Both the position numbers and the translations under genes were made by a program. From NCBI GenBank assembly GCA_003427395.1, contig BFEA01000002.1:9227093-9291092 (forward strand): 64,000 bases of DNA. The letters run 5' to 3'. Shown piece by piece: positions 4,046 to 36,045 of the stretch (position 1 is its first letter; the number at the start of each line of letters is the position of its first letter). Under the pieces are notes generated by a model. That model made no database searches, was not told the DNA's origin, and saw nothing but the letters and a program-made list of their open reading frames with translations. Source of the DNA: Chara braunii (Eukaryota > Plantae > Charophyceae).

Positions 4046-5920
4046 TTTAAAGAAGATGGATTATATTTTGACAGGTGACAATTCTGGTAGTCCACTCTGA
4101 ATAGGGGAGATTTTGCAACGAATCTACCTTTCTTTGGACACTTGCCTAGAGGTAGGCTTAGATATAGTTAACTAGAAAAATTAAGGTAAAATCATGATAT
4201 GAGGATTGTTCTCCATGGACTTATAGGTTTAGCCTGGGGCATTGACCTGTAATGTGTTACAAGTCCTCTTGACCGTTAAATTCAAGTTCAGGACTAGATT
4301 CAACTTGATCCTTTGAGGATCATCTTCTGTTATCATTGATAACAGGTCGGTTGCTGATTCGTGGGTCTACGACTCAATCCTAACTCACCCTCCATACTCA
4401 ACCTAAAAGGCTTTAGCCCTGGTGATATTATTGTTTCATTAAGGTTTCACCCGGACTTTTATTGAATGGTCATTTAACGAAGGTACTGAGTATTTAATTA
4501 AGGTTGGTTGAACAAGAGATTGGGGCTTGCATGGCTAAAGCGAGGGGTATGAGTATAGGTGTTGGTTGAGCTTGACTCCGTGTAGTGCGTGGACTATTGT
4601 CTGACCCTTTGATGTGATTGCAGGTGTGTTCTGTGACTCAGATTCTGGATTTGATTGTCCGCGATCACATATATACATATGGTTGTGAGAAACCCCACTG
4701 AGACTGTGAGAAGTGATCGTCACATACTTACCCCCTTATATATGCATACATGGGTGTACCTGGGATGAGTGTTTACGTGGCCTAAGGGGTCCCGCGCTAA
4801 AAACCTACTCAGAGGTTAAGACTGAGAGGCACAGGGAAGACCCTTTGTTTTACTTGTTTGCTTCTTGCGGGTTTTCTTAGTCGGACGTTGGTCCTGGGCC
4901 GGGATTCAAGGTCCTTGTCCAGGACATTCCAAGCCCTAGACTCTGCAGGGGAGGAACTTCCCCTAGCGCAGAGCCTATTTGCTATGCCCGTCGAGACACC
5001 CAGCCCTGAAGGCGGAAATGTCGCGAGGGCCGAACGGCATATCCTTCAGCCGTTCAATATCGTGAGGGGTAACCCCTCACGATATATTCCTTCAGCCATT
5101 CAATATTGCGAGGTTGGAACCGCGATTACCACGTATGACAGACATCGTTGGTTGGTATAGGACTGACCTGCAATCGCGCGGCTTTATATTAGAATCATGC
5201 GCGCGACGGTTCGCCGCCCTAGCATCTAAAGGTTATGGGATCAAGGGACTCGCACATACGCACGAACGCTTGGGATTATTATAGGTCGCTGACACCAACC
5301 GAAAAAGGGGGGGGGGTACCCCAGGGTTATGATTTCTTTTGGAATAAGGGGACCTTCGGCCTATTTTTTTTGTTTTTTAAGATTTTATATAGTTGGACGT
5401 TGTAGTCCGTGGCAGCCGTCAAAGTCAAACCCCTTGACTCTTGTCCAGGCCTGGAGCGGGGCTCACCTCCAGGGCAGTAAGAAAGGAATGTCGTCACAGG
5501 TACAGACATGTGTACCACCCACTCTGCACAGGGTGCGAAAGAGGGTGTGTGGTTTTCAACCGCGCATGGCGGTTGTCCAACGTCGAAAGATTAACCCTCA
5601 AAGCGCGTGTCAGCCGACACTTGAGTGTCTAACGCGGCCCTCAAGATCAACGAGGATCACATGAGTATGGATACTACATAGTACGCCATCATTGCGACCG
5701 CTTGCGTACGTTTGCATTGCGGATCGATAGGAGTAGGCCCTGCGTCCGCGCGGTTTTATACTAAGTCTCGCGCGGGACGACTATCCGATTCCGCATCGGA
5801 AAGCTATGGGACGACTATTGAAGGGACTAGGAGTGTTGTCGCGTTGTTTGATGTGAGTGTGTGTGTGTGGTTTATCTTAGTGTACGTAGTGTGGTGTATG
5901 CGTGGTGAGTGGGAGGCGTC

Positions 5921-6345
5921 CTAGTCGATTGACGACGAGTCGCGCTTGGGACCTCAGCCCCCCCAAGATGTCGGTTCACGTGCGGGCCCGATAGAGGCGT
6001 ACTACCGAGCGTACCCCCTATGCTACAGCGAGCGAGAAACGGCCTCGGCTGGTCCACCTCTGCGATTGCAACTGATTAGCTTTCGTACTGTGGACTGGTA
6101 GCTCGGCGGGGATACGCCCACCGAAGGGAGGTGACAGCTTCCGCAAGGTGGAGGTAAGTCGTGCCTCGCATAGGCCCTATCCTATCGTAGGGGTTCGCGA
6201 GAGGTATGGCTGGTGCACTCGGCCGGATCGGCTTGCTGAAGCTCCATGTATATATTCGCGATGAGGGATTTAAGCCAACTCCTGTGTGACGCGGCTGGGA
6301 GGGTCCCGCGCTGCCCTGTGCGGTGCCGGACCGATGTGCTCGACA
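5921..6345 (+). ncRNA. Putative structured RNA module at element right end (copy 1)
   Basis: Conserved blocks CTAGTCGA, AGGCGT, GCGTACCCC, TATGCTACAGCG, GGTAGCTC.GC.GGGATACGCC, a hairpin with G-GUGA-C loop (6131), CCTCGC...GCGAGAGGTA, a GGGA-loop hairpin, a terminal hairpin, then CGACA. Confidence 0.6.
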
Positions 6346-6866
6346 GCGCGACGCCTAACCGATTGCTCTGCTACAAGGTTATGGGTCGGACACTAAAGAG
6401 ACTAAGAGAGTTTTACTTTTCATGTGAGTATTTTAATTTTATTGTGGTGTAACGTGTGGTGAGTGGATTGCATCCTAGTCGACTGACGACGAGTCGTGTT
6501 TGGGACCTCAACCCCCCATGCGCTGATCCGCGTGTGGGTCCGATTGAGGGGCGTTGACCGCACGTACCCCCTATGCTACAGCGAACAAGAAACTCCCTCG
6601 GTTGGGCCACCTCTGCGATTGCATACGAAAAACTTTCGCATGTGGTTTGGTAGCTCAGCGGGGATACGCCCACCCAAGGGATGGTGACAGCTCCCATGGG
6701 TGGAGGTAAGACGTACCTCGCGTGACCCTATCCTGTCGTAGGGGTTCGTGAGAGGTACGACTAGCGCACTCGGTCGGAGCGGCAAACCACGCTCTACAAT
6801 GAAGTCCAGTAAAATCGTGCGTGATGCTGTCGGGAGATTCCCCCTGCAAGACCGATGCGCTCGACA
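6346..6866 (+). mobile_element. Right end of a related host element into which D1 inserted; contains RNA module copy 2 (6475-6866)
   Basis: 6356-6480 resembles 5770-5925. Second complete module ending GATGCGCTCGACA (6862-6866), flank CCGT. Confidence 0.65.
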
Positions 6867-7010: not shown

Positions 7011-8094
7011 GGAGGAGAAACTCAAGGAAGGAGTTAAGGGTTGAAAGAGCCAAGAGATGAGAGGGAAAGAAGAAGTGGTAGGCTGGAGACTTCAGTGTGA
7101 GTCGTCCTATCGCTCACATGTATGTGTTTATACGTATAAAATTTTCCTCCTATTAGTACGTGTATGAATTGTTCGTAAAACTTTTTTACTTGATATCAAA
7201 CCAGTAGTAGGAGGATCCAGTGAGGGTCGTCCTATTACTTGATCGAACTTAGTCTAATATGTCCTGAAGGGTAGTAAGGCACTCCAGTGAAAGTCGTTCT
7301 AATTCTTGTTCGAGACTAGGACAACTAAGTGCTGAGAGGTGGTGGGGTGCTCCAGTGTGAGTTACCTTGCTGCCTGGTACAAAAAGAATGGCAGGATGGA
7401 GACTCCACTGCAAGTCGTCCTACCACTATAAGCATTTGTACGTACAATATTAAATACCGGTGTCGGAGCTGATAGCCGACACAACGTCGGCACCTACAGA
7501 CAGGCTGAAGTCGGAAAATGAGGCAAACCCCTCGACTACTTGGTCAAGAAAGTTTTGCAAGCACAAACGCCGGAACGCGGCGTTCTCAAACTAGAGTCGG
7601 TGGTTAAATTTTTTTCGAATGCTCACTTTCTTTGTCGTGACAAATGCAGAGACTGTAAAGGTTAGTGGGTTAAAAATTTGGATGACCACGTGAGCCACTT
7701 TGACTCGCGCAAAGACTGGAGAAGGGTTATTGAATAAAACCGCCGACCACAGAGGCCGGAAGGTTAGTCTAACGAAAGGAAGTTGCGTGGGTGTGACGAC
7801 AGCACGCCGAGTTAGTAGTTTCCGGCTAAAAACATCAAAACACGGTAGGGAGCGGGGAGAAGGGCAATGTATCCCCCCCCCCCTTTTTGCCTTATATGAG
7901 ACAGAAAGTTAATATACACCCCGGCCTTATGGCCAGGGCAGCCAAAGAGAGGCACGTTGCTTGCCATGCTAAGGCAGCGGCAGCCGGTACGAGCCTAAAC
8001 TAGCCCTAGGGAGGCAGGCCGTGAGCCTGTTTTACTTGAGAGACCAAGCCTATGCTCTACTTATGGCAGAATAGCTCTTATTCTAAGTGAACTA

Positions 8095-8179
8095 AGAGCT
8101 AGCCTAATAGGCACAGGCAGGGATTATCATGTGAATGATCTATGAACGAATCCCTCCGGCATTCGGGCTATCTCCTTTT
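8095..8179 (+). ncRNA. Putative Pol III (A-box/B-box) small RNA, copy in A1 (most degenerate)
   Basis: AGAGC-TAGCCTAATAGG (A-box-like) ... GAACGAATCC (B-box-like) ... GGGCTATCTCC-TTTT; the 5' and 3' ends can base-pair. Confidence 0.45.
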
Positions 8180-9579
8180 GACAAGGAGTTATACTTCAGT
8201 TTCACCCCGCGTTCGGACGACAGGGACTTGAACCCGTGACCTCTCTGGGGGTAAGTTAGAGGTTACTTGAGCCTACGCCCCGGATCCGACAGATGGCTCA
8301 CGGGAAAGTTAGTAGATAGATTCCGTTAGTAGTGAGATTCTGTTTTCATTGTCTTTCTTTTATTTATTTGATCTTTTTACTGCTTTTATTTTTATTTTTC
8401 TATTTCTTTGTCCTGCTTCATTTTATAAAAACGAAATTGACAAGTTAAACCAAGGAATCCATCCCGCTATCGAGGTAGATACGGTCAGAAAATTCCCTGT
8501 TGAACTTCTATCCGACTGAAAACTCGTCGGCCCCGCTAGAACATCGCGGATCGTTACCGCGAAGCCGAGCTGAGTTAGCTATTGCAGAGAGAAGAAGAAG
8601 GAGCGCAGCAGGGAGAGGAAGCGCAACGAGGAGCACAAAAGCAGAGGTAGAGCGCAACAACGAGCGGGAAGCACGGAGGAAACATAAGCACGCAAGAACG
8701 GGCGCAGTGATAGGAAGCAGGGCCGGGGGCAACGCAAAGGAGATGGAAGAAGGCCGCGCATAGGGACATGGTAACTAGCGTGGGGAGAGGTGCGATGCGA
8801 CGTAGGTGAGGGAAGAATAACACTAAGGAGGGAGAAGAGAAACATTGAAAAAATGGAGAAAGACGATCGCGCTGCAGAAAGCAGAGCGCAGCAAGAAGGC
8901 CACTTCGCGGGAAAGCTCGAAAGGGGGAGATGTGTGGAGGTAGTGCGAGTTGGCAGGAAATGCGCGCGGGAAGATAAGCGCGCGGAGGCAGGAGTAGAAC
9001 GCGCAAGAAGAAGAAGAAAAAGAAGAGGAAGAAGAAGAAGGAGAAGAAGGAGAAGAAGGAGAAGGAGAGGAAGGAGAAAGGGAGAGAGAAAGGTATCCTG
9101 GAAGCAGGAAAGATAGCGCACAGAGAAAAAGAAGGCGGTAGTACGAAAGAGGGAGACACAAGAAGAAGAAGAAGAAGAGGAAGAAGAAGAAGAAAAGGAA
9201 GGGGAGGAGAAGGAAGAGATGAAGAGAGCGGGCAACTTACCTAGTAATAGGTGCGCCCTCCCTTGTTGTCAATGATGACGCTGTGAGGTTGGGGCCGTCA
9301 TTATCGACTTGTTGGAGTGCGCATCATGCTCGTGGTGTGATCACAGTGTGCTGGCCTTCGTAACAGATCATGTCGTGGAGCGAGGGAGAGAGAGAACGTA
9401 AGTCCCCAATAACATGACCTACTCCATAGAATTTCATTCGATGGGGAGAACAAAAGCAAAAGAATCTACCGCTAGCTATGGAAAATGTATCTACCGCTAA
9501 AGAATGGGAATATACGCCGCCACACTCATTTGCTCGTGTGCGAGTATGAGTGTGAGTGTGTGAGTGTGAGCGTGCTTGC

Positions 9580-9582
<3 letters not shown>

Positions 9583-9673
<91 letters not shown>

Positions 9674-9674
9674 N

Positions 9675-9746
<72 letters not shown>
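9583..9746. repeat. (TG)n(AG)n compound microsatellite
   Basis: Seen directly. Confidence 0.95.
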
Positions 9747-9752
<6 letters not shown>

Positions 9753-10461
9753 CTTACCTGTTCCACGCTGGTCCTGATCGCAACGGTCGTGCAATCAGCC
9801 TGAACGCAATGCACCCCCACTCCGGCTGACAGTATCAGACCGAAAAGATAGTCTATATACTTTCATTTACATGTTTTTTTTTAATTAATTTATTATTATT
9901 ATTACTATTACTATTATTATTATCGTTGTTGTTACTATTATCATTATCGTTATTATTAACTATTATTATAGCGACCTTATTTTAGTCACGAGGAGAAGAA
10001 GAGTAGCGCAGAAAAGGGGAAGAAAATCACGGGAGGAGAAGAAGATTTCGAGGAGAAACGCGGATCATCGTAGAAAGCAGAAACTACCGCTCAGGGAAAA
10101 GAAGGGTAGAAGAAGAAGAAGAAGAAACCTGCCAGTTGTAGTCTGGGTGCCGAGCGCCAGATAGGATATCAACATTGGTTATTCGTTGATGATGATGATG
10201 AAACTATTCCAGCATTGTCAATTATGAGCGATTCGTGTGCTTTTATTTGGTGGGATTCGTGATGCATTTTTGTTCTTGGTTTGAGGTCACAAGAGTCTGG
10301 TCGCATGTATATGATACTGTTTGATGTCATTTTATTTAAAAATTGGTTATTTTCTTTTTTTTTTGTTGATTGATATATTATTATTATTATTATTATTTTA
10401 CAGACAGTTTTATTTTCTTTCACACTTCACATGCGTATAAACGAGTTGCACAGCAAACTGG

Positions 10462-10499
10462 CTGTCTCTTATACACATCTAGATGTGTATAAGAGACAG
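10462..10499. other. Nextera mate-pair junction adapter (two Tn5 mosaic ends) - assembly artefact
   Basis: CTGTCTCTTATACACATCT+AGATGTGTATAAGAGACAG between two identical 155-bp copies (10307-10461 = 10500-10654). Confidence 0.97.
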
Positions 10500-11779
10500 G
10501 TATATGATACTGTTTGATGTCATTTTATTTAAAAATTGGTTATTTTCTTTTTTTTTTGTTGATTGATATATTATTATTATTATTATTATTTTACAGACAG
10601 TTTTATTTTCTTTCACACTTCACATGCGTATAAACGAGTTGCACAGCAAACTGGTGACAGGCGCCCACTCAGACCTTAGAGATATGGTAACCGGGAACAC
10701 AGTTTAGATTCGGGTTCACTTCAATGGCCGTGGTGACTCGACGCCCACACAACTCTCCCTGTTTGCAGACACCGGATCACCTTGGATATCCCACACACGT
10801 GGCACTCTGTGTACGCATATAAACACACACACTTCACATTAAACTGCAGCTATCGCAGCTATGGCTGCCTCTACCCTATCGCTATGCTACCCTGTTCTCT
10901 CTCGCCCACTTCAGCTCCGGGCTCTCTGCAGACCTCCTTGCACAAGTCTTTGTGGAGGCGCTTCCGCATGGCTCACGCAGGAATGAATGAATGGCTGGGC
11001 ACGGCCTCTTGATTTATACTTCGAGGACTCGTTGGTCTGCCCATTGCCATCGGCCCATGGTGTTCACAGTCCCCCGTGCTATTTGCTGGACCGGACCGGG
11101 ACTAACTGGACCTTACCGTTGACTAACTGTGGGTTCACTGTTAACCCACCAGACTCGTACTGCAATCGCACTGCGGTTTTAGTCCACCACTGGGCTCGCC
11201 ACTTGACCACTTGCCAACCTTCTAAGAAAACTACAGCTAAGGCTCAGGGAACTTCGCTAAGACTTCTATCCTACAGATCTATAGATCGAACCCCTCTGCT
11301 ACCTACGGACCTATGACAACCTATCAACTGTTGCGAACACACACGTCACAGGTTCAACTCTCGGGCTCTACACAGATACTGTACACAGGTTGGGCAGGAT
11401 CTCGGGATCGAACCCTGGGATCTACGTCTACACAAAGGTGAAAACCATTTCAGATTGATTGGTATATTATTATAATTACTATTCTTATTATCATTATTAT
11501 TATTACTATTATTATTATTATTATTATTTTACTTGTAGGCAGACTTGTTGTCTTTTAGACTTCGCATACATGCAAACAGATGGGGATTCACATTGGCGCA
11601 TGACGCCCGCTCAAAGCTCAGAGATATGGAAGCCAGGAACACAGTTCGACCGAAAGTTCGCAACAACAGGCTGTGGCGCATCAGCGCCTGTAAACTCAAC
11701 TCTCGTCACTATGTCTAGCACCACTGTTCGAACAGACTCAACTCTGGATCACCCTGGTTATCCCACACACACTCACACT

Positions 11780-12295
11780 GTATCCTACACGCACACAATC
11801 ACACAGAGACAAAAAAACAGACAGAAACAGACGGATGCAGACAAACGGGCAGACAAACGCAGGCAACGAAAACAAGCCTGAATGACAGACAAACCCGCCA
11901 GACAAATAAGCACCGACAGGCAGCGACAAACAATTAGATACCAACGACAACGGACGGTCAGAGGAACAGATCGACAAAAGCAAGCAATCAAACAGACAGG
12001 CACACACAGAGGTAGAGCGAGATAACGAGAACATACAAACATAAACAGATAGCGACAAACAGTGAACAAACATAAAATACAAACAGAAACAGACAGAGAC
12101 AGACAGACAAGGACCGACACCCACAGGGAACCGACAGACACAGTCGGACGGACGACCCGACAGACACAGTCGGACGAACGATCCAACCAACACAGCCAGC
12201 TAATACGAACCATCAGACAAGGTAAAGGAATCAGGCATAGCCAAACGCACAGGCAATCAGACAAACCGAACAGACGGCTAGACACCGGCAACCAG
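11780..12295. repeat. Degenerate (CAGA/GACA)n-rich tract
   Basis: Seen directly; homologous tract at ~25640-26230 in A2. Confidence 0.85.
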
Positions 12296-13068
12296 AGGCT
12301 GTGATAGAGAAATCAGGATGGACGCAGTCCTGCGTGGTACTTACGGACTTGACGAAGGGGCGACCAGGACTGTGTACCGCGAACTGGACTGGGTGGGACT
12401 GACCACCTGCCTACGGACTGCATCCTTGGACTCACGGAGGGCCTGTTCCGGAGGTTTTGGAAGACTGCGTACTGGACCCTTCGGAACTATGGCAGCTACT
12501 ACTCTTGCCACGACTCAGACCTCTAATCTTCAGACTTACGGTTCAAGCTCGCACCCGCAACTGATATTGTACATGGGTGAGGGCGAGACCTAAGGATGGA
12601 GCAGGGGAACTGCATATGCTACCGTAAAGGTGAAAACCATTTCAATTGTATTGATATCAGGGAAATAGAGGAAGAGAGAATGAGAAAGAGAGAAGAGGGC
12701 TATGATGTACACGCACATTACTAACCCTACCGACAGTGTACGGGGGTCGACATCGTCATATACTCCGGTTCTACTGCTAATGTCAACTGAATGCGTTGTC
12801 AACTCGTAGGATGCTAGTAATCTGCATGATCTTCATCTAGACACTAAGTAGGAAGGAGGACCTGACACACATGTGTTGGTGACCGCGAGAGTATGCACCC
12901 ATTGACGCTCTGATGCGATGATCTGATTCTTCGTTGGTGTGGTAGCGATGCATTACTACTATTCCGGACAGTGTCAGGTTTTCTAGCTTTCAATGTGACG
13001 GCGTAATCTGCGATCTGTCATTTCGCCTTTGCATGCTTGCCTTCTGATACTATGAGTAGTAGTATTGA

Positions 13069-13115
<47 letters not shown>

Positions 13116-13739
13116 TACTATTATTATTATTATTATTATTAATTGATATTCCTTATTAAAGCATCAGGGGGTAAGCGGGGGTCAGGAAGGAGAAGAGTGT
13201 GGGGCGTTGGAGAGGAGGGAGACATTATCACTGTGTGGCGGTGCCTACCTCCTCGATCTTCCTCCATTTTTTTCTCTGTTTGATCATCTCGTGTACCAGT
13301 CTCTTTGAAACTATAACTTGTCTAATGATATATTCCTATAAAGGTCCAGACGTCCCATTGCATGTACGAGATCGATAACAGGGTGATTGTGGGAGCTCTG
13401 TCGGAGTTCAGGTGGAACTCTGGAGGCAGGGAACCATGAGGTACGCATCACCTATCCCTTTCCCATATACCCTTACAGGCTACGCCTTTCTATTGGACTG
13501 CCTGTAAGATTGTATGATATACTGCTTGTACTTTCTTCAGGATTAAGAGAATCAAAAAGAGGAAAGGATACGTGAGTGAAATAAGAATCGTGCCTGTTAA
13601 AAAGAAAGGAACCTAAGTTAAACGAGAAGGAACCTTGACAGCTTGGGTTTGAGGAACAAAGTGGTACGATGGAGGCTCATGTGTGAGCCGTCATGCTACT
13701 TGTGTATGCTCTGACTTGATTAAGGGTTAACAATAAGGT

Positions 13740-14765
13740 ACTCATTAGTGAGTCACCTTGCTCTCTGCCTGTCCGGCTGTCGTCGTGACGGGAAGGGGAT
13801 TCTAATAATAACTTAGGAACTAAACTAAGTACTCTCTCGGCTGCCGTCGTGATGGGACGAGGGTAGAAACAAAATACTTATAAACTAATTTAAGTACTCT
13901 CTACCTGAGCTGTTGTTGTCATGAGGGGACAAGGGTATGAACAATAACTTATGAACTAATCTAAGTACTCTCTACCTGAGCGGCTGTCGTCGTGAGGGGG
14001 CGAGGGTACAAACAACTACTTATGAACTAATCTAAGCGCTCTCTACCGGAACGACTGTCGTCGTGAAGGGACGAGGGTACAAACAAATACTTATGAACTA
14101 ATTCAAGTACTTCTAACCAGATCGGCTGTTGTCGTGATGGGAAAAGGGGTATTAACAATAGTTTATAAACTAAATCGGGTACCCTCCACCGTAACGGCTG
14201 TCGTCGTGACGGGAAGGGGGTATCTGACTATAACTTATGAACTAGATTTGGTACTCTCTACCGGATCGACTGTCGTCGTGATGGAAGGAGGGTACTAACA
14301 ATAACTTATAAACTAAAGTAGGTACTCTCTACCGTAACGACTGTCGTCATGTCGGGAAGGGGTTATCTAACTATAACTTATAAACTAAACATGGGCTCTC
14401 TACCGGATCGACTGTCGTCGTGATGGGACGAGGGTACAAACCCAAACTTACGAACTAATCTAAGTACTCTCTACCGGATCGGCTGTCGTCGTGATGAGAC
14501 GAGGGTACAAGCAAATATTTATGAACTAAAATAGGTACTCTCTACCAGATCGGCTGTCGTCGAGACGGGAGAGGGGTTCTGACACTGGCTATGAGCTAAC
14601 TTAGGAACTCATGTGTGAGTTACCTCACTACCTTACCGGATTGGTTGTCGTAATGGCGGGAAGGGATGTCTAACACTAACTTATGAAGTAAACTAGGTAC
14701 TCATGTGTGAGTTACCTTACCATCTACCGGAGCGACTGTCGTCGTGACGGGAAAAGGGGTCTGAC
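13740..14765 (+). repeat. 71-bp tandem array (~14 diverged units) in A1
   Basis: Unit approx. ACTCTCTACCGGATCGGCTGTCGTCGTGACGGGAAGGGGTAYWAACAATAACTTATGAACTAAWYTARGT; starts near 13761, 13832, 13897, 13968, 14039 and onward. Confidence 0.95.
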
Positions 14766-16620
14766 TCTTAGAAAATAATAAGGAAGGCTCTAGGGAGGGT
14801 CATCCTATTCACATACTTGAGTCTAAGGATGACTAACAATCTGCAAAGAGTAGGAAATCACATTTCTACTCTTCCTTTTCCTAGCTTACTCACCTTCTGA
14901 TCGTCCGTCCACCAAACCGGTAGAGGGGAGGCTTCTTTAGGAGTCACCCTATTACTTGTTTAACGGTTGGACTACTCATTACCCAAGGAAAGTAGTAGAG
15001 GGGCCTTTGTTGGGGTCTGTCTATTACTTACTTGATTCTGTACTAACTCGCTAAGAGGGTACTCTTGTAGGGATACCCTAAACACTCGTCTTCTGTCCGA
15101 ATTAACACGGTCTCAGGACGGTCAGCTTCGGAAAGGCAACAGGAAACCTTTGTTAGGATTATCCTAATGCTCTCATGAAGTGAACCTTCTCACGTGATAG
15201 TAGGGGGCTCTTGTGCGGGTCACCTATTATTCACGCAGACCGTTATTAACCTCTGAGAAAAAACTGACATCAAGATCCTTCAGAACGTTACCTAAAGCAA
15301 ATAGTAGGATGCTTCTGTAGGAGCCTCAACTATTTTTTGTAGGAGGGATGGTCATGTGTGAGCTATCCTGTTACTCTGAGCAGATCTTATGTATACATGG
15401 AGTGAAACAAAAGGGGGATCAAATACTCGTGTGCGACTTACCCACCTGTCTGTTTGACTAACTGATTGCTTGGTATTGATCAAGTAGCAAGAGATTCATG
15501 TCTGGATCAGTCTACTACTTGAGTATGTTAACACAAATAGAAGAGAAAGGAAAGAACAATGTTCATGTTCGAGCAAGGTCTTGACGTATCTGGAAAAGGA
15601 ACAAGGAAAGAAGATAGGACCGCGAGAGAAAGGAACTTAAGAACCACCGCGTAGTTCATGACCGTCCATAGCTTTCAGATGGAAGGCCACGATGATGAAT
15701 GAATTGTATCTCGTCTACATAAGCGTCAAACGGTGCGCTTATTTCCAAGAGAGAAAATGCAAGGACTGAGAGTAGGGTAAACATGAGTTTCCCTAAAAAC
15801 GACTTAGGACGCAGACATGAGACTCCTTGAGGGAAAGGAGAGAGTGATAGACGGCTTAGGGTAGGGTTGTGAGAGTAAAGCTAAGGATAGGCCTGGGGTG
15901 TCGATCCCAGAGCTCACTACCCATGTCTAAGGGCTCGACCCTTAGATATCAGTATGTGGGAAATCGAGTGGGGGTGTTGAATCTTTGTTGACTTGTGTGT
16001 GTGCAGGTCCCTGTTTATCTACTACATTTCAAGGAAGAGGTTCTACAGAAAGGACCCAAATTTTTGTTATCTCTCGATAACAGGCCGGTTGTTACCGATT
16101 CAACTTTTCCCCCTTTGACTTGATACCCACCTCTAAAGTCAAACCCTGTGGTCAGTAAAACTGTCACCTGTGGTCATTGCCTAAATGGTCTTAGTCACTC
16201 TCAAGGGTCCTTTGAAGAAATGTGAGGGGGTAAGGCTTACGTCGCAGGAAAGATAAAGTTGTCATACATGGTTTGGGAAGTGAGGGACAAGGTCAATGGT
16301 TGATGGTTGACTCGGTTAGTGCATGGCATGTGAACTGTCTTTACATTATTCTGTGCAGGTCTAATTTGTGCGTGACTTTGGATTGAACTGGACCTGGTCT
16401 GTTGAAGAGTCTCGGACATACAACACTTGTGAAAGTGGGAAGGGTTCTCGGCGGTAATACTTTCATATTCATCATATGTCCAACTTAACTATTATGATGT
16501 TCAGTTAAGTCCTAACCTGTTAAGAAAGCTAGGACGTTCTTTGGTAGAAAGAAGATTTGTTCGACATTGGTCGAAGGAATAATACAATACAAAGTAGCGG
16601 AAATAGACTGCCTTATTAAA

Positions 16621-16978
16621 AGTTCGACCTAAATATCGAACGGGTCAGTTCTAGGCGTCTTACCGCGCGTACCCCGTTTTATGCTACAACGATCGAGCAA
16701 ACGCCCTCGGCCGACCTACCTCTACAAGGACATGTAAAAGCCTTCGCATGTCGGCCGGTAGCTCAGCAGGGATACGCCTACCTGAGGGTGGTGACAGCCT
16801 CTCGGGTTGAGGTAAGTTGTACCTCGCGACTCCCCGACCTGTCGTGGGGTGTCGTGAGAGGTATAGCACGCGCGCACGGTCGGAGTGGTGACCGGTTCTT
16901 TTTCAAGAAATAAATCCTGCGTGTCACGACCGTGAGGTTCATCGCTCCCAGCGGAGTGCGGGATCGCCACGCGCGACA
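16621..16978 (+). ncRNA. Putative structured RNA module at element right end (copy 3, A1)
   Basis: ACCTGAGGG-TG[GTGA]CAG-CCTCTCGGGT hairpin, TACCTCGCGAC...GTCGTGAGAGGTA stem, GACC[GTGA]GGTTC, then CGACA. Confidence 0.65.
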
Positions 16979-17603: not shown

Positions 17604-19318
17604 AACTTCATGTAGGGTCATGTTGATAGCTAGGGGGTGTTGAGATCTTGTTGACCTATATGTGATTGAAAGTCATATATTCAAGAAGACTCATTATGAG
17701 TGTATACAAGACTATATCCCGTTGCCTTATGGTAACAGGTGAGTTCGTCAACTCAACCTTCACTCACGCTCGACACACAAGCGGTTAACGGGTAGCTGGA
17801 AATTCAGGAATGAAAATTTTGAAGTGAGAGTTTTGGGCAATCAGAAAATCCCGAATGGTTTTGAAGTGGTGAAACTCCGAAGACCCTGAAAACCACCTGT
17901 TTAGGCAGGCTGCATCCTGAAGTGGTGAAGTGAGAGTTTTTGACAGTCTGAAAATCCTTAATGGTGCTGAAGTGGTGAAAGATCCGGAGACGTTGAAAAC
18001 CACCTGTTTATGCAGGCTGCATTTAGAAGTGGGGAAGGGTGTTCTGAAGTGGTGAAAGGTCCGAAGACCCTGAAAACCATCTGTTTAGGCAGGCTGCATC
18101 ATGAAGTGGTGAAGGGTGTCATGCAGTGGTGATGAAATATACAACTGTTGTTAATCTTTTCTCCCTTGACACCACACTTTGCATTTATCTCTGCACAAAA
18201 AGACATTTGTTAATTTTTGGATCATTGTTGAAAGAGTCTATGTTTGGTAAAAAAAAAAAAAGTCATTGAATGATCAAAACCACATGAGACTGAATGATTA
18301 AGTCGAAAAGGGGATGTCTGGCTGAGAGGATTGAAAATGTGAGTGTAATGTGGGTGAAAATGAATGAATGGTTGACTATGTTAGGATTGTGTAATGCATT
18401 TGGTTTTGTTTGCATGTCAGTAAAATGATCAACCATGCGTTATTCATGCAACTCGCATTGACAAACTTATGTTTACCTAAGCCTTGACGCAGACACTTCA
18501 TCGACACGTAACCTTTGTACATTTGGTTTGGACTTTTCGACTTTACTCTTTCTTGATACTAAACAGATTAGCATAATTGGCAAGACCAGGAACCTTATTC
18601 GTGTCATATTTTTTAAAAGGTCACGAGTCTACCGTTTATTTTTAATGCATGCTTGAAAGGTCATGAGCCTATCTTCATTTCTTATGTATGATTGAAAGGT
18701 CAATAGCTTATTGCTTGTTTCACTTTCAAAAGTCAAAAACTTCATCCATGTTTGTTTTTGTTTATGTAAAAATGTAAAGAAATTTCATTGTTTTTTTGTC
18801 TCAATCTTTGAAATTTACTTATTATGCGTATATCGGTTTAAAATAATTTATATAACACACATAATTTATGTGTTAAGTACAAATAAAATAAAATATTGTA
18901 TGTAAGAAAGTTCGTTAGTCGAGTCGACCTGAATCGTAAGTTGGTCCGAGAGATCAGCACCCCGATGCCCGACACGTACATGGGTCAGTCTTAAGCGTTC
19001 TACCGCACGTATGTCTACGTTATAGCGACCGAGCAAACGCCCTCGACTAACTTACCTCTGCGATTGCAAGTAAAAACCTTCGTATGTGAGTTTAGAGCTC
19101 AGCAGGGATACCCCTACCTAAGGGCGGTGACAACCCCTCAGGTAGAGGTGAGTTGTACCTCGCGGAGCTCTGTCATGTCGCAAGGAGCCGTGAGAGGTAT
19201 AGCTACCACGCACGATCGGAGTGGTATCTTCGCTGACTCAATGCAATACCTTAATCCTGCATGACACGATCGTGAGGTCCTACGCTCACCGTAGGGTGTG
19301 GGATCGCAGTGTCCGACA
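16979..19318 (+). mobile_element. Right part of older family member E (host of A1), ending in RNA module copy 4 (18915-19318)
   Basis: 17070-17230 is similar to 7200-7370. Carries the GTTGCC/GGTAAC hairpin (17721-17736). Ends GTCCGACA|ACGC. Confidence 0.6.
17815..18132. repeat. Short tandem repeat (~107- and ~77-bp units) with TGAAAACCACCTGTTTAGGCAGGCTGCAT and GAAGTGGTGAA
   Basis: Unit cores at 17886, 17993 and 18070. Confidence 0.85.
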
Positions 19319-22028: not shown

Positions 22029-22754
22029 TGTGAGTGAAGAAATTTGGTAAATGAGAGAGTCATGTAGGAGATGATACCCTTACAAGAGTATCTGCTCATG
22101 ATTTTGTATTCGACACAACGTCGGCGCCAACAGACAAGCTGAAGACGGCTAAAAACGGAAAATGAGGCAAATCCCTCAACTGCTATGGTCGAGAAAGTTT
22201 TGCCAGCGCAAGCGCCGAAACACGGCGCGCACAGACTAGAGTCGATGGTTAATTTTTTTTCGAATGCTCGCCTGCCTTGTCGTGGCAAACGCCGAGACGG
22301 TAAAGATTAAGGGATTAAAATTTGAATGACCACGCCCGCCACTTTGACCTGCGCAAAGACTGAAAAAGGGTTACTAGTAAATTAAACTTCCGGCCACAAA
22401 GGTCGGAAGGTTAGTGTAGCAGAAAGGGTCACGCGGAAGGCGACAACGATTTTTCCTTAGTTTATCGACGGCTAAGAAGGTATGTTTGGTTCGGCTTAAA
22501 TCAGTAGACGTCGAAAGTATCAAGTAAACGGGGCGACAAAACTACTTGTTGCAGATTAAGACGTAGGGTGAAACTACTAAAGGCCTGGCCATGTGGCCAA
22601 GACAACTGGTAAGGTAGCCAGACTGACGTAGCGGGCTATGACAGTTAGCAGGAGTCTGAGTCTAACCCTAGGAAAGGTTGTAGGCAATACATCAGCCAGA
22701 AAGGGGAGGGTCGTGCTATACTTATACTGGGAGAGCTCTTATTATAATTAAGCT

Positions 22755-22840
22755 AGGAGTTAGCTCAGTAGGTATGGGTCTGAATTGTCATGTTATAGAT
22801 TCAGGGATAAAATCCACCCAATCTTGAGTTATTTCCTTTT
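22755..22840 (+). ncRNA. Putative Pol III small RNA, copy in A2
   Basis: AGGAGT-TAGCTCAGTAGG (canonical A box at +7), degenerate B box GGGATAAAATCC, 3' TGAGTTATTTCC pairing with the 5' end, then TTTT; TTATTATAATTA upstream. Confidence 0.55.
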
Positions 22841-24889
22841 GATAGGGAGCAGTAGTAGGGCCGCCCGTTTTTAGCCCGCACAACGTGTGGCGGGACTCGA
22901 ACCCGTGACCTTGGTATCAGAGCTAGTTACAGTTAGAACCCGTTGAGACAAATGACACAACAGGGGAGTTAGTAACTGAGTCTTTTTTTTTTCTTTTATT
23001 TATTTTCGTTATTTAGTTAGATCCGGTTTCTTTTATTTATTTATTTCGTTATTTTGTTAGATCCGTTTTTCTTCTGTTTTGTATTCTTTTTTTTCTTCTC
23101 GGTTATCCGCTCCCCTAGGTGATTTTTCATATATTTACATTACTGAATCTGTCTCCGAAAGCGGACAGATTCAGTGAAAAGTGAGTCAAGGGGTTCTGCA
23201 GCAGGAGCCCTTGCGATCTTGATCGCGCTGGAACCGTGTGACCGCGAGAGGCTCGAAAGAAGGGAAGTCGCCATCACGAGTCGGAGGAGCAATCGGAAGA
23301 GTACCTCACGGGATAGCGCAAGCCGGCCGAGAGTGCGTGCGGGGAAGAAAAGCATGCGAAGGCAGAATGGGAGCACGACGGGAAGCGGGAAGCAGAGGAG
23401 GAACGAAGCAAGGAAGAAGAAGTCACGCGGACGAAAGAGGCACACACGGGGGGGGGAAAGAACGCGGAGGAGAGCATGCAGACATCGCGCGGAGGGAGAA
23501 AAGGGTCGCACGAAGTAAAACAGGAAGAACGCTCGAATGGAGGAAGGGAAAAAGGGGCCGCAAGAAGGAGGAGGAGGACGAGAAGAAGAAGAAGAAGGAG
23601 AAGAGGAAGACGAAGAAGGAGAAGGAGAAAAAGAAGGGAAAGGAAGTAGACCAAAGAAGGAGAAGAAGAAGAAGAAGAAGAGGGGAGAGGGATGGTCACC
23701 GGGCCGTGCATACGCTGCTTACCTTATGAGAGGGTGGAGATTCGTGGGATGCGGGATGCTTTCGCCGAAAGCGCAGTGAGTTTGGCTTGCCATCTGTCTG
23801 GCTTGTTGGCATGCGAGCATGTGCCTGTCTTATCCCCTGCGTTGTTGTCTTCGAGTGTTGCGCATCGTGGCGGGCAGTGTTGCAACGACGACGACGAAGA
23901 ACAAGAACAGGTAAGTCTTCCAATCCCGCGGCTACCCCACTCTACCTCCATTGATTGGACAAGCAAAATCGAAAGAATCTACCGCTAGACTATGGAGATA
24001 TACATAACTACATGTGTGTATATGTGTGTGTGTGTGTGGGTGTGTGTGTATGTGTGTGAAGGAGGGAGAGGGAGTTTAGAGAGAGAGTGGCAGGGGTTTA
24101 CCTGTTTCGTTCACGGATGCCTTAGCAATGGTAAAGCAATCTCACCTAAAACAAGAGGGCTGCAGATTCGTAAGTGTATCCGGCTGGAAAGGTAGATAGT
24201 ATACGTTGACGACGTCATTATTATTATTATTATATTTATTATTATTATTATTATATTTATTATTATTATTATTATTATTATATTTATTATTATTATTATT
24301 TTTGGTAGTTGTTATTATTACTGTAGTTATTATTATTACGACTATTATGGCGATCCTACCGCGGCTACGAAGAGGATGAGGGAAATCGATCGAATATTTC
24401 ACATGAACGTCGAGATATTTACTGCTACAAGTATATGTGTGAGAGAGAGAGAGAGAGAAAGAGGGAAAAAAAGGGGGCGCATGGTGGTCCTTGAGTGCAA
24501 GTGGCATCTGTGTATTGGGGAACGAGGTTGTGAGTGAGGCGAGAGACATACCTGCTGCTGGAAGCGTGCCACATTGGTCGTTGTATGCTTGTACTTCGGG
24601 ACAATTGTTGACGTCATCATTTGGCACTGTAGTATAGGCTAGATAGGATCTGCCATCTGTAGTCTGGTCGCCGAGCGCCAGATAGGATATCAACATCGGT
24701 TCTTCATTGATGATGATGATGAGACTTCACCAGCATTGTCAATTTTTGAGCTCTTGGTATCTCCTTATTTGGTGAAACTTGTGCTGCAAATTTTGTTGTT
24801 GGTTCGGGGTCACAACTATCTGGTCTTGTGTATATAGTGCTGTTTGATTACTGAAGTTCGCTACTGATCATCATCCTTGCCAATTGTTA

Positions 24890-24928
<39 letters not shown>

Positions 24929-27924
24929 GTGGTAGAAGTAGTAAAATCAGACTTGCTTTCATTCACACTTTACATACATGCGAACAGTAGCGCAACAAAC
25001 TGGCGACATGCGCCCACTCAAAACTCAGAGATGTGGCAACCCAAATATGAGTTCACTTCCAATGGCTATGGCGATATAACGCCCATGCAACTCTCTGTTC
25101 ACATACAGTGGATCACCCTCAATATCCCACATGCGTCTTTCTGAACACTCGTACACACACACTGAGCTCTAACTACGACTATGGCAGATATGTCGCTGCT
25201 ATGGCCAAGCTGCTTCTTCTTGCCCACTTCGACTTCGAGCTCACTGCAGACCACCCCGCTCAAGTCGCTGTAGCAGCGCCTCCGCATGGCTCACGTGGGA
25301 ATGAACGAATGACTGGGCGCTGCCTTTTGAGTTATACTTTTGTAGCCCGATAGTTTGACCCTTTCACATGCCCGTAGTGCACACAGTCCCATGCGGTACT
25401 TGCTTGATTGAACTAGAACTGATTGAGACTAGGACTGTTGACTCAGCACGGGTAGACTCCACCACTTCCCCGCTTGCCTGAGGTCTGCCGTGAGCAATGG
25501 GTGAAGCGCCACTCCCGGATCTTCCGGAAGTCTGCAACTTGGGCCCATTGACACTATAGCAGCTACAGCCTTGACCTTCCAGGACTGTAGCAGCTACGAC
25601 CTTGACCCCTACGGGACAGACCTACGGTTCGAGACCCGACAACTACACTGGTCAACAACATACAGGCACAGAAACAGGTAAACACAGTGAGAGAAAAGGG
25701 ACAAAAAAAGATACATATGCAGACACGCAATCAGATAAGCACAGACAACAGACAGACAAAAGCCAGACCAAATCAAACCAGCAGCCTGATACAGGCAACC
25801 AGACAAACAAGCGACGGACATGCAGATCAGACACAGGTGACCCCGCAGACACAAAGACGGACAGGCAAGCAGACACAAGACCGCAAACTGACAGACAAAA
25901 CGGACAGACAGTCTGCTGAGTGGATCACTTGACTGGTGGATAAGGGCTCACCACCTTACCCATGGATGTGTGCTTGAGTGTGTATATGAGAAAGAGAGTA
26001 TGAGAGTAAGAAAACGAGACGCAGATAGGCAATACACAGCGAAGAGACAGATAGACAGATATACACAGACCGACACAGACAGACAGAACAGACAAAGACT
26101 GAGATAAACAGACCAAGACAGACAGAATCTGACAAACAAAACAGGGTTGGACAGACATAACGGACGAACACAGGCTAATAGGCAAACAGACGGACAAACA
26201 CAAACAGACTGACGTATACACAGAGAATAGTATATAGAGAGAGACTTACCTGCCTGCAACCCGCAAAGGTCGACGTTTGCATATACTTCAGTTTTGCTGC
26301 GGGCGTCAGCAACTACATTGTCAATTCATAGATTGGTAGTAGTTGTACGGTAGTAGTCTGGGCGCCGAGCACCAAATAGAAGCGAGACCTTGGATACTTA
26401 TGTTGATAATGGCAAGGGCAGGCACTCTTTATCGATCGGATTCAACTTTCTGGTTCTCCATTCGGTATAATGTTGGTGCGGTTCTGCTTTCTGGACAGTA
26501 ACGGACTTTCTGGTTTTCAGTATGATTCTGCAAATCTGTCATTTCGTCACAACCCAATTCCTTACATTATTGTTATTATCACTGTTATTATTTTTTATTA
26601 TTATTATTACTATTGTTATTATTATTATTGTTATTATTATTATTGTTATTATTATTATTGTTATTATTGTTGTTGTGGCTTCGGTAGTTTGTGATACCCA
26701 GCAAGCCTCGCACCCGCCCTGAGTGAATGCAAGCCTGAGTATCCGCGAGAGGGGCCTATCTCGACATCTTTCAATGCAGGTCTCAGACAATGCTGCAAGC
26801 CGGTTGGTTGAAATCCAGCCGGGGTCTCAACCCGGGGGTTCTTCCAAGGAAAAGCAGCTGCATCAGGCAGCTGAGCCCAGTACGCGGGATGTTGTGCCTT
26901 GGGCACATGCGGCATGAGGTCAGCATGGTAAGAAGGGTCGCGGGTCACGGGGAAAAGCGGCATTGTCACCATATCCACGCGCAGGCACGAGGACCAGCAA
27001 GAGTGCGCCCACATGGTCTTGCGAACAGGCAAGACATTGAACATGCGCGGTTCTAGAGGTACGCATGCGGAACAGCGACGGGGTGCTATGACTAGGGTTG
27101 TGTGGCGAAAGTAAAAAGGGTGCATGTGGACTAAAACGAAGGTGCTGTTAGGGAGGAAAGGAGTAGGAGGTGTGAAGAGGAAGAAAAAGAGGGAGAAAAT
27201 GAAAAAAGAAATAAAGAAAAGGAGAAGTGAAAGAGAAGGAAGTGACAAGATCCGACCCCTTTTGCTGTTATTGTTGCTATCATTTATTATTGTTATTTTT
27301 ATTATTATTATTTATCATTATTATTATTATTGTTATTTACTTTCGCCAATTGATATTATTGAATATCATGGGCCAGAGGCAAAGAGAATGTGAGGCATTG
27401 GAGGGGAGAAAGACATATTTATTTGAGATGATGCCTACCTCCTCTATCCACCCCCGTTTCTTCTCTTTGATTGACCCTCTCAGCCGCCTGTCTCCCCGAC
27501 TGTGAGAGTTTATTAAGGCCTTTCCACTGAATTGACCTAGGTTATTTCTAAAATTAAATCCTGGACGGACGAATGGAGTAACTAGACGAGGGCGATTGCG
27601 GAAGCTCTGTCAAAGTTCAGGAGAAACTCTGGAGGCAAGGAACCATGAGGTACGCGTCACCTAACCCTTTCCCATATACCCTTACAGACTACGCCCTTCT
27701 AGTGCACTGCCTGTATGGCTATGTGATATATTGTTTGTATATTCTTCATGACCAAGATAATAAAAATGAAAAAAAAATGTATGATTGGAATAAGAATCCT
27801 GCCTGGTGAAAGGAAAGGAACCTAGACTGTTTGGGCTTGAAGAACAAAGCAGGACGATGGAGGCTCATGTGTGAGCCGTCGTGCTACTTATGTATGCGCT
27901 AACTTGACTAAGGGTTGGCTATGA

Positions 27925-28775
27925 GGTACTCATGTGTGAGTTACCTTGCTCTCTACCGGATCGACTGTTGTCGTGACGGGAAGAGGGTTCTGACATTGAC
28001 TTATGAATTAACTTAGGTACTCATGTGTGAGATACCTTGTTATTTGCCTAATCGACTGTCCTCGTGATGGGCAGAGGTACCTGACAATAACTTATGAACT
28101 AAATTAGGTACTCTCTACCGTAACGATTGTCGTCGTGACGGAAAGAGGTATTTGACTATAGCTTATGGACTAAATTAGGTACTCTCTACCGTAACGATTG
28201 TCGTCGTGACGGGCGGAGGTACCTGACAGTAACTTATGAACTAAATTAGGTACTCTCTACTGGATCGGCTATCGTCGTGACGGGAAGAGGTATCTGACAA
28301 TAACTTATTAACTAAATTCGATACTCTCTATTGGATCGACTGTCGTCGTGACGGGAAGAGGTATCTGACAATAACTTATAAACTAAATTAGGTACTCTCT
28401 ACCGTAACGATTGTCGCCGTGACGGGAGGAGNNNNNNNNNNNNNNNNNNNNNNNNNNNNNNNNNNNNNNNNNNNNNNNNNNNNNNNNNNNNNNNNNNNNN
28501 NNNNNNNNNNNNNNNNNNNNNNNNNNNNNNNNNNNNNNNNNNNNNNNATAACCTATGAACTAAACTAGGTACTCTGTACCGTAACGACTGTCGTCGTGAC
28601 GGGAAGAGGTATCTGATAATAACCTATGATCTAAATTAGGTGCTCTCTACCGGCTGTCGTCATGACGGGCAGAGGTGTTTGACTCTAACTTATGAACTAA
28701 ATTAGGTACTAATGTGTGAGTTACCTTACTAACTACCAGATCGACTGTCGTCGTGATCGAAATAGGTGTCTGACA
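27925..28775 (+). repeat. 71-bp tandem array in A2 (interrupted by N gap 28432-28547)
   Basis: CTCTCTA starts at 28111, 28182, 28253, 28324 and 28395, an exact 71-bp period. Confidence 0.95.
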
Positions 28776-30913
28776 TTTAGAAATAATAAAGGGATGCGCT
28801 TGTGCGGGTCGCCTTGTTAGCCTACCGGACCAGTCTCCGAAGGTGGTAGAAAACCCATGTATGGGTTGGAAACTTTCTCTTTGAGGCTGGGACGATTGAC
28901 ATAAGCAGAAGGTGGCGGTATTCCTGTGTGTGCTACCTCACCACCTTCAAGTTGATTAACTAGGATCTGCTTGTTGTGAAAAGTGAACTCAGGGAATCTT
29001 CGTACTAACTTTTTTTCTTATTAACGTCTTAGGAAGTTTTGGTCGGTGCACTTACTCAAGGTTTAGTAGGGGGCTCCAGGAAGGGTCATCCTATTAACAC
29101 GCTTGAGTCTAAGGCTGGCTAACAACCTGCAAAGAGTAGGAAATCACATTGCTACTTTTTCTTTCTTATCTTATTCACCCTCAGGCAGTTCGACCACCAG
29201 ACCGGTAATAGGGAGGTTTCTGTAGGAGTCATCCTATTACTTGTTTGAAGGATGGACTACTCACTAACCAAGGAAGTAGTAGGGGAACCTCTGTTGGGGT
29301 CTGCCTATTACCTACTTGATTTTGATAATAGCTTACAAGGGGGAAGGGTGCTCCTGTAGGAATACCCTAAACACTCGTCTTCTGTCCAAACTAACCCGGT
29401 CTCAGGACGGTCGACTTCGGAAGGACAATAGGATACCCTTATCAGGATTATCCTAATGCTCTCATGAAGTGGACCTTGTCACGTGATAGTAGGGGGTCCT
29501 TGTGCGGGTCGCATATTATTCACTCGGCTCATTAATAACCTCTGGGAGGGGGTTGACATCCAGGTCTTTCAGAAGGATATCTAAAGCAAGTAGTAGGGTG
29601 CTTTTGTAGGAGCCTCAACTATTTGTTGAAGGAAGAATGCTCATGTGTGAGTTATCCTGCTACTCTGATTAGATCATGTGGGGCTAAAAAGGGGGATCAA
29701 ATACTCATGTGCGACTTACTCACCTGTCTGTTCGACTAACAGATTGCTTGGTATTGACCAAGTAGCAGAAAATTCATGTCTGAATTAATCTACTACTTGA
29801 GTATGTCAGGACAAATTGAAGAGAAAGGAAAAAACAATGTTTCTGTTGGAGCAAGGTCTTCACCTATCTAGGAAACGAAACAAGGAAAGAAGATAGGATC
29901 GCGGAAAAAAGAATACTAGTAAGATAAGAACTGCCGCGAGGGCCGTGTCCGTTTATGGCTTTCGAGTGGGAGGCCACAACGACAAAAGAGTTAAAACTCT
30001 ATTACATAAGCACCAAGGGGTGTGCTTGTTTCAAAAGAGAGAGAATGGAAAGACTGAGAGTAGAGTAAACATGAGATTCCCTAAAGACGACTTAGGATAC
30101 AGGCATGAGACTCCTTGAGAGAAAGGAGAGAGTGACAGACGACATAGGGTAGGGTTGTGAGAGTAAAACTAGGGATAGACCAGGGATGTCGATCCCAAAG
30201 CTCACTACCCATGTTTAAGGGCTTGACCCTTAGATATCAATATGTGGGAAATCGAGTGGGGGTGTTGAATCTTTGTTGACATGTGTGTGTGCAGGTCCCT
30301 GTTTATCTACCAGATTTCAAGGAAGAGGTTCTACAGAAAGTACCCAAATTTTTTGTTATCTCTCGATAATAGGTTGGTTGTTACCGATTCAACTTTTCCC
30401 CTTTAACTTGATACCCACCTCTAAAGTCAAACCCTGTGGTCAGTAAAACTGTCACCTGTGGTCATTACCTAAATGGTCCTGGTCACTCTCAAAGGTTCTT
30501 TGTAGAAATGTGAGGGGGTTGGGCTACATCTCAGGAAAGACAAGGTTGTAATACCTGGTTTGGGAAGTGAGGAACAAGGTCAATGGTTGATTGTTGACGC
30601 CGTTAGTGCATGGCATGTGAACTGTCTTTGCATTATTCTGTGGAGGTCTGTTTTGTGCGTGATCTTGGATTGAACTGGACCTGATCTGCTGAAGAGTTTC
30701 GGACACACAACACTTGTGAAAGTGAGAAGAGTTCCCGACGGTAATAACCCTATCCTCATTATTTGTCTTGTATAACTTCTATATTATCTGATATTCAGTT
30801 AAGTCATGGTCTGTTAAGAAAGATAGGATTCTCTTTGGTAAAAAGATGATTTGATTGATATTGGTCAAGAGAATAACACATTACGCAGTAGCGGAAATAG
30901 ACTGTCTGTTAAA

Positions 30914-35219: not shown

Positions 35220-35314
35220 AGGAACTAGCCCAGTAGGATAACGCACTCAACTCTCACCCTACTGATATGGGGATCAAATCTCACTCGTGGTACTGCCGGG
35301 CTAGCTCCTTTTTT
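35220..35314 (+). ncRNA. Putative Pol III small RNA, copy in B
   Basis: AGGAAC-TAGCCCAGTAGG (A box), GGGATCAAATCT (B-box-like), GGGCTAGCTCC pairing with the 5' end, then T6. Confidence 0.6.

Positions 35315-35436: not shown

Positions 35437-35484
<48 letters not shown>

Positions 35485-36005: not shown

Positions 36006-36045
<40 letters not shown>

Follow-up and report, generated by a model that had tools for sequence, protein, structure and literature searches.

Why should the ends of mobile elements whose remaining sequences can rarely be aligned with each other carry one and the same RNA-like module? This question is raised by a stretch of 64,000 nucleotides (nt) from the charophyte Chara braunii (contig BFEA01000002.1, positions 9,227,093 to 9,291,092 of the forward strand; this whole stretch is referred to as the window), for which an earlier note, made from the letters alone, had described seven copies of such a module and had considered an unclassified cis-acting RNA, among other options. 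Our analysis shows the module in a setting that almost certainly identifies it as the RNA of the 3′ (R/U5) end of a Gypsy lineage with giant long terminal repeats (LTRs) of 9–13.5 kb. That it mainly serves as a primer-docking switch in the leader of the genomic RNA is a model that we favor with reservation, as being somewhat more probable than all other functions together. What is new here is that the most conserved motifs of the module are, by sequence comparison, antisense to the D-stem and the anticodon arm of a proxy tRNA-Asp.

Module copies at the ends of giant LTRs

The module is 350–450 nt long and occurs seven times in the window, each time on the plus strand and at the place given in the earlier note, with six intact copies and a decayed one. 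The copies extend over 5917..6345 (A1), 6471..6866 (A2), 16618–16978 (B), 18905..19318 (C), 30911–31271 (D), 43177–43632 (E) and 57321–57668 (F), the last being the decayed copy, in which the middle is lost and GGTGACA is kept. With a profile built from six copies, the seventh was the sole further match, retrieved as two fragments (E 7e-18 and 9e-7). The pair A1 and A2 reflects duplication in tandem of the terminal ~550 bp of an LTR (5772–6866): A1, which ends in CGACA, is the first unit, and A2, followed by CCGT, marks the true right LTR end. The two modules are 77% identical and both retain the module helices, and the A1 unit is 90% like that of a locus from outside the window (L009, see below).

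Pairwise identity among the six intact copies amounts to 57–87%. Across families, the module is nearly the sole alignable part of the LTR 3′ region, and only 1 of 21 pairs of the 1.5-kb stretches upstream could be aligned. The earlier statement that the interiors of the elements are mostly unalignable thus stands across families and does not apply to elements B and D, which are collinear over 9 kb. The same split is seen for conservation above that of the adjacent element DNA, which is found across families but not between B and D, where the module (318 of 360 positions identical) is no better conserved than five adjacent bins (81–93%). Such a pattern would be expected from selection at the level of the family, followed by decay after insertion.

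In four elements of the window both boundaries could be established, and in each of them the module ends the LTR, in agreement with the original description of a module abutting the element terminus. Solo LTR B (7461..16978, plus strand, 9518 bp) has the ends TGTCGG...CGACA and the flanks CCGG/CCGA and lies within one repeat array. Solo LTR D (22063..31271, plus strand, about 9.2 kb, flanks GTCA/GTGA) is collinear with it, and the LTR size of ~9 kb is therefore not just a matter of nesting. Solo LTR E (34667..43632, plus strand, flanks TCGA/TCGC) comprises 8966 bp, part of which is a LINE-like piece nested in it, and solo LTR F (44147..57668, plus strand, flanks GCGC/GCGC) reaches 13.5 kb; these two elements contain other inserts. 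The left ends read TGTCG in B, E and F and TGTAG in D, the right ends CGACA in six of the seven copies and CGAGA in decayed F. Target duplications are 4 bp long and of the NCGN type, with agreement at all four positions in F and at three of four in B, D and E; the right flank is NCGN in six of the seven copies and NTGN in D. An empty-site paralog of the E target is present at about 34320–34340. For the elements of A and C, left LTR ends were searched for and not found; copy C terminates with CGACA, after which ACGC follows. A tRNA-Asp primer binding site does not occur anywhere in the window within four mismatches. The bounded window copies, being solo LTRs, therefore present the fold without primer site, and in decay.

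Primer sites became apparent in copies outside the window. A pattern scan of metagenomes yielded nine loci, three of which were true (L002, L004 and L009) and six of which proved to be chance matches when checked with the profile and a covariance model; viral contigs, scanned with patterns as well, gave no matches, and a scan of prokaryote genomes gave 11 loci, none of which has the module. In all three outside copies, a tRNA-Asp primer binding site is located 2 nt past the final CGACA of the module. The sites of L004 and L009 match the 19-nt site that is printed for FIDEL and described there as complementary to Arabidopsis tRNA-Asp (PMC2844528), while that of L002 has one change within the first 16 nt; the ATHILAfinder preprint lists the same primer-site core for tRNA-Asp/Asn. 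L009 displays the order LTR end, primer site, an interior of 4.9 kb that is mostly non-coding and includes a gag-like frame, and then LTR start. The gag-like frame contains a CCHC knuckle and two stops, and an acceptor-like site lies 5′ of its start. Homologs of this frame are Chara braunii proteins in 4 of 4 and 4 of 5 matches, the fifth being the protein of the locus itself. Two of six gag-frame proteins match Retrotrans_gag (E 0.002–0.003, under the Pfam cut-off), and the Atlas gives gag/CCHC clusters for them. LTR start and LTR end are found together in solo LTR F, the left end of which is 76% like the LTR start of L009.

It is because of the TG...CA-type termini, the target duplications, the primer site in three of three outside copies, the gag-like open reading frame (ORF) and the new LTR start that we identify the module as the 3′ end of an LTR and the bounded window copies as solo LTRs. 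TG...CA termini, a target duplication of 4–6 bp, a tRNA primer site after the LTR and gag downstream are among the marks of Ty3/Gypsy LTRs, and these four were found. Among the options raised earlier, a cis-acting U5 domain for packaging or priming has gained most, with the module at the LTR terminus and the primer site next to it in every outside copy. Helitrons, Ginger-like DNA transposons, group I/II introns, telomerase RNA and tRNA-derived SINEs were also considered and were dropped on account of the primer site and gag.

Folding and covariation

The alignment used for structure comprises nine sequences, i.e., the six intact window copies and the three outside copies, with decayed F omitted. 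In a 14-helix model, 90.1% of 714 cells are paired. Double-sided changes occur in 22 of 83 model pairs, compared to a mean of 11.6 in shuffled alignments (0 of 500 as high) and 1–9 in slid controls. An unbiased helix scan produced two helices that exceed all 60 column shuffles (19.0 and 16.4 versus a null maximum of 15.1), and further helices within the tail of the null. The stem arms quoted in the earlier note are present in the module copies, and the count of double changes upholds its observation that stem sequence varies while pairing is kept. The same is true for the choice of strand: there are 87 G-U cells versus 19 A-C cells, which supports the plus strand as the folded one. Folding of single sequences is slightly better than that of shuffles (z −0.5 to −2.9 for the plus strand and −0.3 to −3.1 for the minus strand) and selects neither strand, so that the case for a structure depends on covariation. 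The crossing helices P1 and P2 of the model are weak, with 35 of 40 cells paired and no variation in P1, for which an alternative partner reaches 36 of 40, and with 32 of 40 in P2.

Other parts of the original structural argument had to be given up. GNRA loops had been taken as a sign of a tertiary-folded RNA, and this reasoning is weak, as one of the loops forms part of a helix, while base pairing offers a better explanation for the other. The supposed second GNRA loop, described as alternating between GUGA and GGGA, falls, where it can be located, within the best long-range helix, on its 3′ side, with the U/G position covarying with the partner. The other loop is indeed always GUGA, but rather than as a GNRA fold it is better understood as a pairing loop of 7 nt, for which 59 of 63 cells can pair with another loop. 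A long-range pairing of GCGUA with UACGC is matched in 35 of 40 cells without any double change and is surpassed by a local hairpin (38 of 40, three double changes). Searches with the Rfam covariance models gave no match over the module (E ≤ 1 for the window, E ≤ 5 for L002, L004 and L009), in line with the earlier note, in which it was not recognized as a group I/II intron, RNase P/MRP, 7SL or omegaRNA; SRP, HEARO and the known ribozymes are likewise among the families without a match.

RNA-seq reads from relatives of the module were present at low depth and in both mate directions (four runs over 14800–19500). Within element B, read depth peaks in the bin of the module core (27/16.7 in X4), mostly due to reads of other copies. 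A contig of 2396 nt has the module core at 1690–1808, and RNA (or DNA) therefore passes through the module from far upstream.

Complementarity to the primer tRNA and its possible meaning

For comparison with the primer we used a proxy, the antisense oligonucleotide of a eukaryotic tRNA-Asp from Table 2 of PMC5699543, which stands in for Chara's own tRNA-Asp. The choice of tRNA-Asp had been made beforehand by the primer site. The two longest invariant runs of the alignment are GGGATAC and GGTGACA, and TCCTGCGTGAC ranks second in length among the near-invariant runs. GGGATAC agrees with the antisense oligonucleotide in 7 of 7 positions and GGTGACA in 6 of 7, and each of the three runs occurs in it with at most one change (PMC5699543).

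Three plus-strand segments of the module are concerned. Segment i (6657..6667 in A2; also at 6105–6115, 16765–16775, 19101–19111, 31058–31068 and 43358–43368) is antisense to the 3′ strand of the D-stem and the 5′ strand of the anticodon stem, and 88 of 99 bases in the nine copies pair with proxy positions of about 21–31, according to our own reading of the position numbers for segments i and ii. Segment ii (6816..6826 in A2; also at 6281–6291 and 16916–16926), which sits about 40–65 nt before the LTR end, is antisense to the anticodon loop and the 3′ stem strand, with 96 of 99 bases pairing with positions of about 33–43. Segment iii, the GUGACAG loop (6684..6690 in A2; also at 6131–6137, 16791–16797, 19127–19133, 31084–31090 and 43382–43388), is antisense to the anticodon loop (61 of 63 bases). 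The segments do not follow each other in antisense-tRNA order and are therefore not one captured piece. They also find partners within the module: segments i and ii pair with each other in 53 of 54 cells, and segment iii can pair loop-to-loop, in 59 of 63 cells, with a hairpin (6726..6743 in A2, plus strand) whose loop, CCUGUC, resembles the anticodon loop of tRNA-Asp. With these internal pairings the module would be closed, and arrival of the real primer could open it. For the tRNA of Chara, the A/G variation in segment i and the invariant U in segment ii would best suit a U-A pair halfway along the anticodon stem. A 5′ splice-site-like AG/GUAAG is located between two stems (6704..6711 in A2, plus strand; GT at 6154, 6706, 16812, 19148 and 31105); this donor-like site is kept in seven of the nine copies and lost in E.

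In random 57-mers, the motif of segment ii was encountered in 0.14–0.24% of cases and the motifs of i and ii together 11–16 times per 3 million, or 162–196 times per 3 million when wobble was allowed in i. The resulting chance estimate is about 3e-5, taking into account that ii was chosen among 13 conserved runs and counting only the five helix-free bases of i. Among 30 bacterial tRNAs, GGTGACA has a 6-nt match in Asp alone.

A primer-docking switch could work as follows. The module would act as the folded leader of the genomic RNA, in which docking of the primer tRNA at extra sites is predicted to turn reverse transcription on. Without primer, the leader would rest in a closed state with segment i paired to segment ii and the GUGACAG loop paired to the internal look-alike of the anticodon loop. 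Gag/nucleocapsid would anneal tRNA-Asp to the primer site, and segments i and ii (or iii) would then swap their internal partners for the tRNA, taking its positions of about 21–31 and 33–43 and opening the anticodon arm, such that the primer would be held over about 40 nt in total, with the surrounding helices as a scaffold for the segments. Use of the predicted donor site would give a spliced gag mRNA without segment ii and the primer site. Selection would act on the module as long as the family replicates, and solo LTR copies would decay. By analogy, this would be a switch like the primer activation signal (PAS)/A-loop of HIV-1 or the extended primer sites of Ty1/Ty3, but, by prediction, a larger one. 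A bolder version, which we offer as a tentative idea with limited confidence, would be that of a Gypsy lineage of streptophyte algae, with the longest LTRs on record (at least 9 kb), that possesses a T-box-like tRNA-sensing switch of 350–450 nt: a codon-bearing loop would read the anticodon, two distant antisense strands would open the anticodon arm, a built-in anticodon mimic would keep the device shut until tRNA-Asp is loaded, and primer choice would be coupled to the decision to splice or to package.

A number of points weigh against our interpretation. As regards the LTR, no pol gene is linked to the module in the recovered loci, no polypurine tract precedes the LTR start in L009, which offers the sole junction available, and none of the elements recovered has both LTRs complete, the LTR end and the LTR start of L009 being non-overlapping pieces; the scores for gag stay below the Pfam cut-off and make its support modest, and read ends do not pile up over 14800–19500 in the four runs. 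As regards the fold, the 14-helix model was drawn from the same nine sequences on which it was scored, and the G+C-rich and wobble-rich sequence of the module allows many alternative helices. As regards the tRNA, segment i has an A-C mismatch to the proxy in five of nine copies, the proxy fails to match the primer site with its 3′ end, the segments were selected partly after the match had become visible, double changes are absent from both the i–ii helix and the loop–loop pairing, and segment ii could also pair elsewhere (59 of 63). With bacterial tRNAs, the lead of Asp in summed duplex energy is narrow (−40.1 versus −38.6 for Ala), and in a longest-complement test over the whole module Asp is outside the top six of 30; the bacterial Asp arm used in this control differs from the eukaryotic proxy.

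At the same LTR position, the fold could instead be a signal for packaging, dimerisation or splicing/export to which Gag or host factors bind, in which case the matches to the tRNA would be due to chance or secondary. This would suit the location next to the primer site, the conservation of the donor-like site in seven of nine copies, the retention of the module in the gag-only element L009, the fact that most module helices are unrelated to the tRNA, and the binding of Gag to the 5′ pseudoknot of Ty1 (PMC4974528). It leaves unexplained, however, why the most invariant runs are antisense to precisely the tRNA that the primer site names, and we consider it rather unlikely as a replacement for primer docking, with which it is compatible. 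The complementarity of segments i, ii and iii to the proxy would serve equally well if the module belonged to R and the free arm of the primer were gripped by the module copy located 3′ in the genomic RNA, for circularisation and minus-strand transfer, as in the 5′–3′ bipartite site of Ty3. tRNA sites at both ends are reported for Ty3 and Drosophila Gypsy (PMC5371799, PMC1635307), and the 2396-nt contig runs through the module core. Yet the module reaches as far as the LTR end, a part that usually belongs to U5 and is missing at the RNA 3′ end, rendering this arrangement improbable.

A novel self-cleaving or self-splicing ribozyme, or an internal ribosome entry site, that processes or translates a very long leader would be in keeping with the size of the module, the several crossing helices of the model, the long non-coding leader before gag in L009 and a hammerhead elsewhere in LTR E. 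We regard it as highly improbable, since pairing accounts for the conserved loops, cleavage here would separate U5 from the region of the primer site, and the Rfam searches were without a match; for the ribozyme, which the earlier note had also proposed, no positive evidence emerged. The idea of an OMEGA-like guide scaffold at the right end of a transposon draws on the position of the module at the element end and on its size, which falls in the range of OMEGA-like scaffolds. It is hardly conceivable in view of the fixed primer site, rather than variable flank, that follows in all three outside copies, of TG...CA ends and 4-bp duplications of the integrase type, and of the lack of any nuclease family in 148 window frames or the ORFs of L009 and of any Rfam match.

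Further features of the LTRs and known systems

Apart from the module, the LTRs share several features. A conserved hairpin lies 13 nt inside the LTR left end (34667–34710, 44147–44190 and 22063–22105; L009 1476–1440, minus strand). A second hairpin followed by a donor-like site is common to four LTRs (1990–2074, 13385–13472, 27593–27652 and 47582–47666), and acceptor-like GATAACAG motifs are present at 4338, 16076 and 17731; together, they may point to a spliced transcript within the LTR. A decayed reading frame with an acceptor-like site before it is situated just 5′ of module E (41540–42700) and has no match in Pfam. In L009, an open frame of 246 aa (4577–5317, minus strand) between primer site and gag is likewise without Pfam match and may represent an additional ORF belonging to the element. 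The Pfam scan of the window, which covered 148 of the 161 frames of at least 75 aa and left out 132 shorter ones, returned only LINE-type zf-RVT below the cut-off and weak noise. What is nested in LTR E is the 3′ piece of a LINE-like element, in which zf-RVT and a poly(A) tail are present (36344–38900). The same LTR contains a type III hammerhead ribozyme above the gathering score (35916–35970, minus strand), adjoining a T-rich stretch common to B and D. By eye, tRNA-like A/B-box sequences can be recognized on the minus strand at matching places in LTRs B and D (8200–8300 and 22880–22925); ARAGORN reported zero tRNA genes in the window, L002, L004 or L009. Two palindromic 38-bp junctions with flanking duplications (10462–10500 and 36833–36871), where the assembly is locally unreliable, resemble what we take to be mate-pair adapter artefacts. 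U6 small nuclear RNA (snRNA)-like copies occur inside LTRs (45036–45132, 45243–45320, 35383–35455 and 55929–55991; L009 225–340, minus strand). Those in F and L009 are oriented like the LTR and begin at a distance of ~1 kb or so from its start, and the copy in L009 exceeds the Rfam gathering score.

Control of priming by structures in the leader is known from yeast Ty elements and a small number of retroviruses, and Gypsy elements account for a large share of plant genomes. In the literature searched, no such structures were found for Gypsy elements of the plant lineage. The module offers natural variants in which covariation can be seen, and the docking model predicts exactly which tRNA, which bases and which compensating changes are involved, and two short RNAs suffice for testing it in vitro. 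The bolder version, if true, would mean that a eukaryotic mobile element possesses a tRNA sensor of the T-box-like kind. In addition, the module is a conserved handle for LTRs too long for the size limit that is usually set (6 kb in the search of PMC6317226) and hence overlooked by standard tools. The full-text literature searched, with the Chara genome paper and Repbase outside its scope, contains no description of the element or the fold; repeat catalogues may already list the family.

Athila-type Ty3/Gypsy elements (non-chromovirus OTA; PMC6317226; FIDEL, PMC2844528; ATHILAfinder preprint) have the same tRNA-Asp primer site sequence; long LTRs and tandem repeats in non-coding stretches are further common points. 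They differ in their target duplication, which is 5 bp in 95% of Athila versus 4 bp of the NCGN type here, and in LTR size, with an upper size of about 5 kb in PMC6317226, whose search was limited to 6 kb, versus 9–13.5 kb; a U5 fold of this kind did not turn up for them in the literature searched. Phygy, a Gypsy clade of mosses (PMC6317226), shares the 4-bp NCGN duplication but mostly uses tRNA-Trp as a primer (81%) and consists of short elements filled with coding sequence, whereas we found tRNA-Asp and the mostly non-coding interior of L009. The lineage described here thus combines an Athila-type primer with a Phygy-type duplication, and we place it in neither clade. The LTRs of Cassandra, Helenus and Ajax (PMC10886601) contain tRNA- or 5S-like sequence, comparable to the U6-like copies upstream of the module, and the latter look like a capture of the Cassandra/Helenus type, but of U6; the term 'snRNA' is absent from PMC10886601. 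In those elements a polymerase III promoter was captured in sense, whereas the module has antisense segments, which correspond to the stretch between the A and B boxes and do not keep its order.

Complementarity outside the primer site, as known for the PAS/A-loop and the boxes of Ty1/Ty3, is present in the module with respect to the proxy eukaryotic tRNA-Asp, with a weak margin in the bacterial control. In HIV-1 (PMC13191261), segments 5′ of the primer site pair with parts of the primer other than its 3′ 18 nt, among them the anticodon loop. The contacts in HIV-1 are short, whereas two 11-nt segments are predicted here to take both strands of the anticodon arm; unlike those of HIV-1, these segments would pair with each other when the primer is absent and face an internal look-alike of the anticodon loop. 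Ty1, with its 5′ pseudoknot, and the bipartite sites of Ty1/Ty3 (PMC4974528, PMC5371799), compared with the module by description and not by sequence, offer parallels in a folded leader needed for reverse transcription and in an extended pairing of primer and template. The yeast elements, however, employ tRNA-iMet with its acceptor, T and D arms, while the module would engage tRNA-Asp and, at 350–450 nt, resides wholly inside the LTR.
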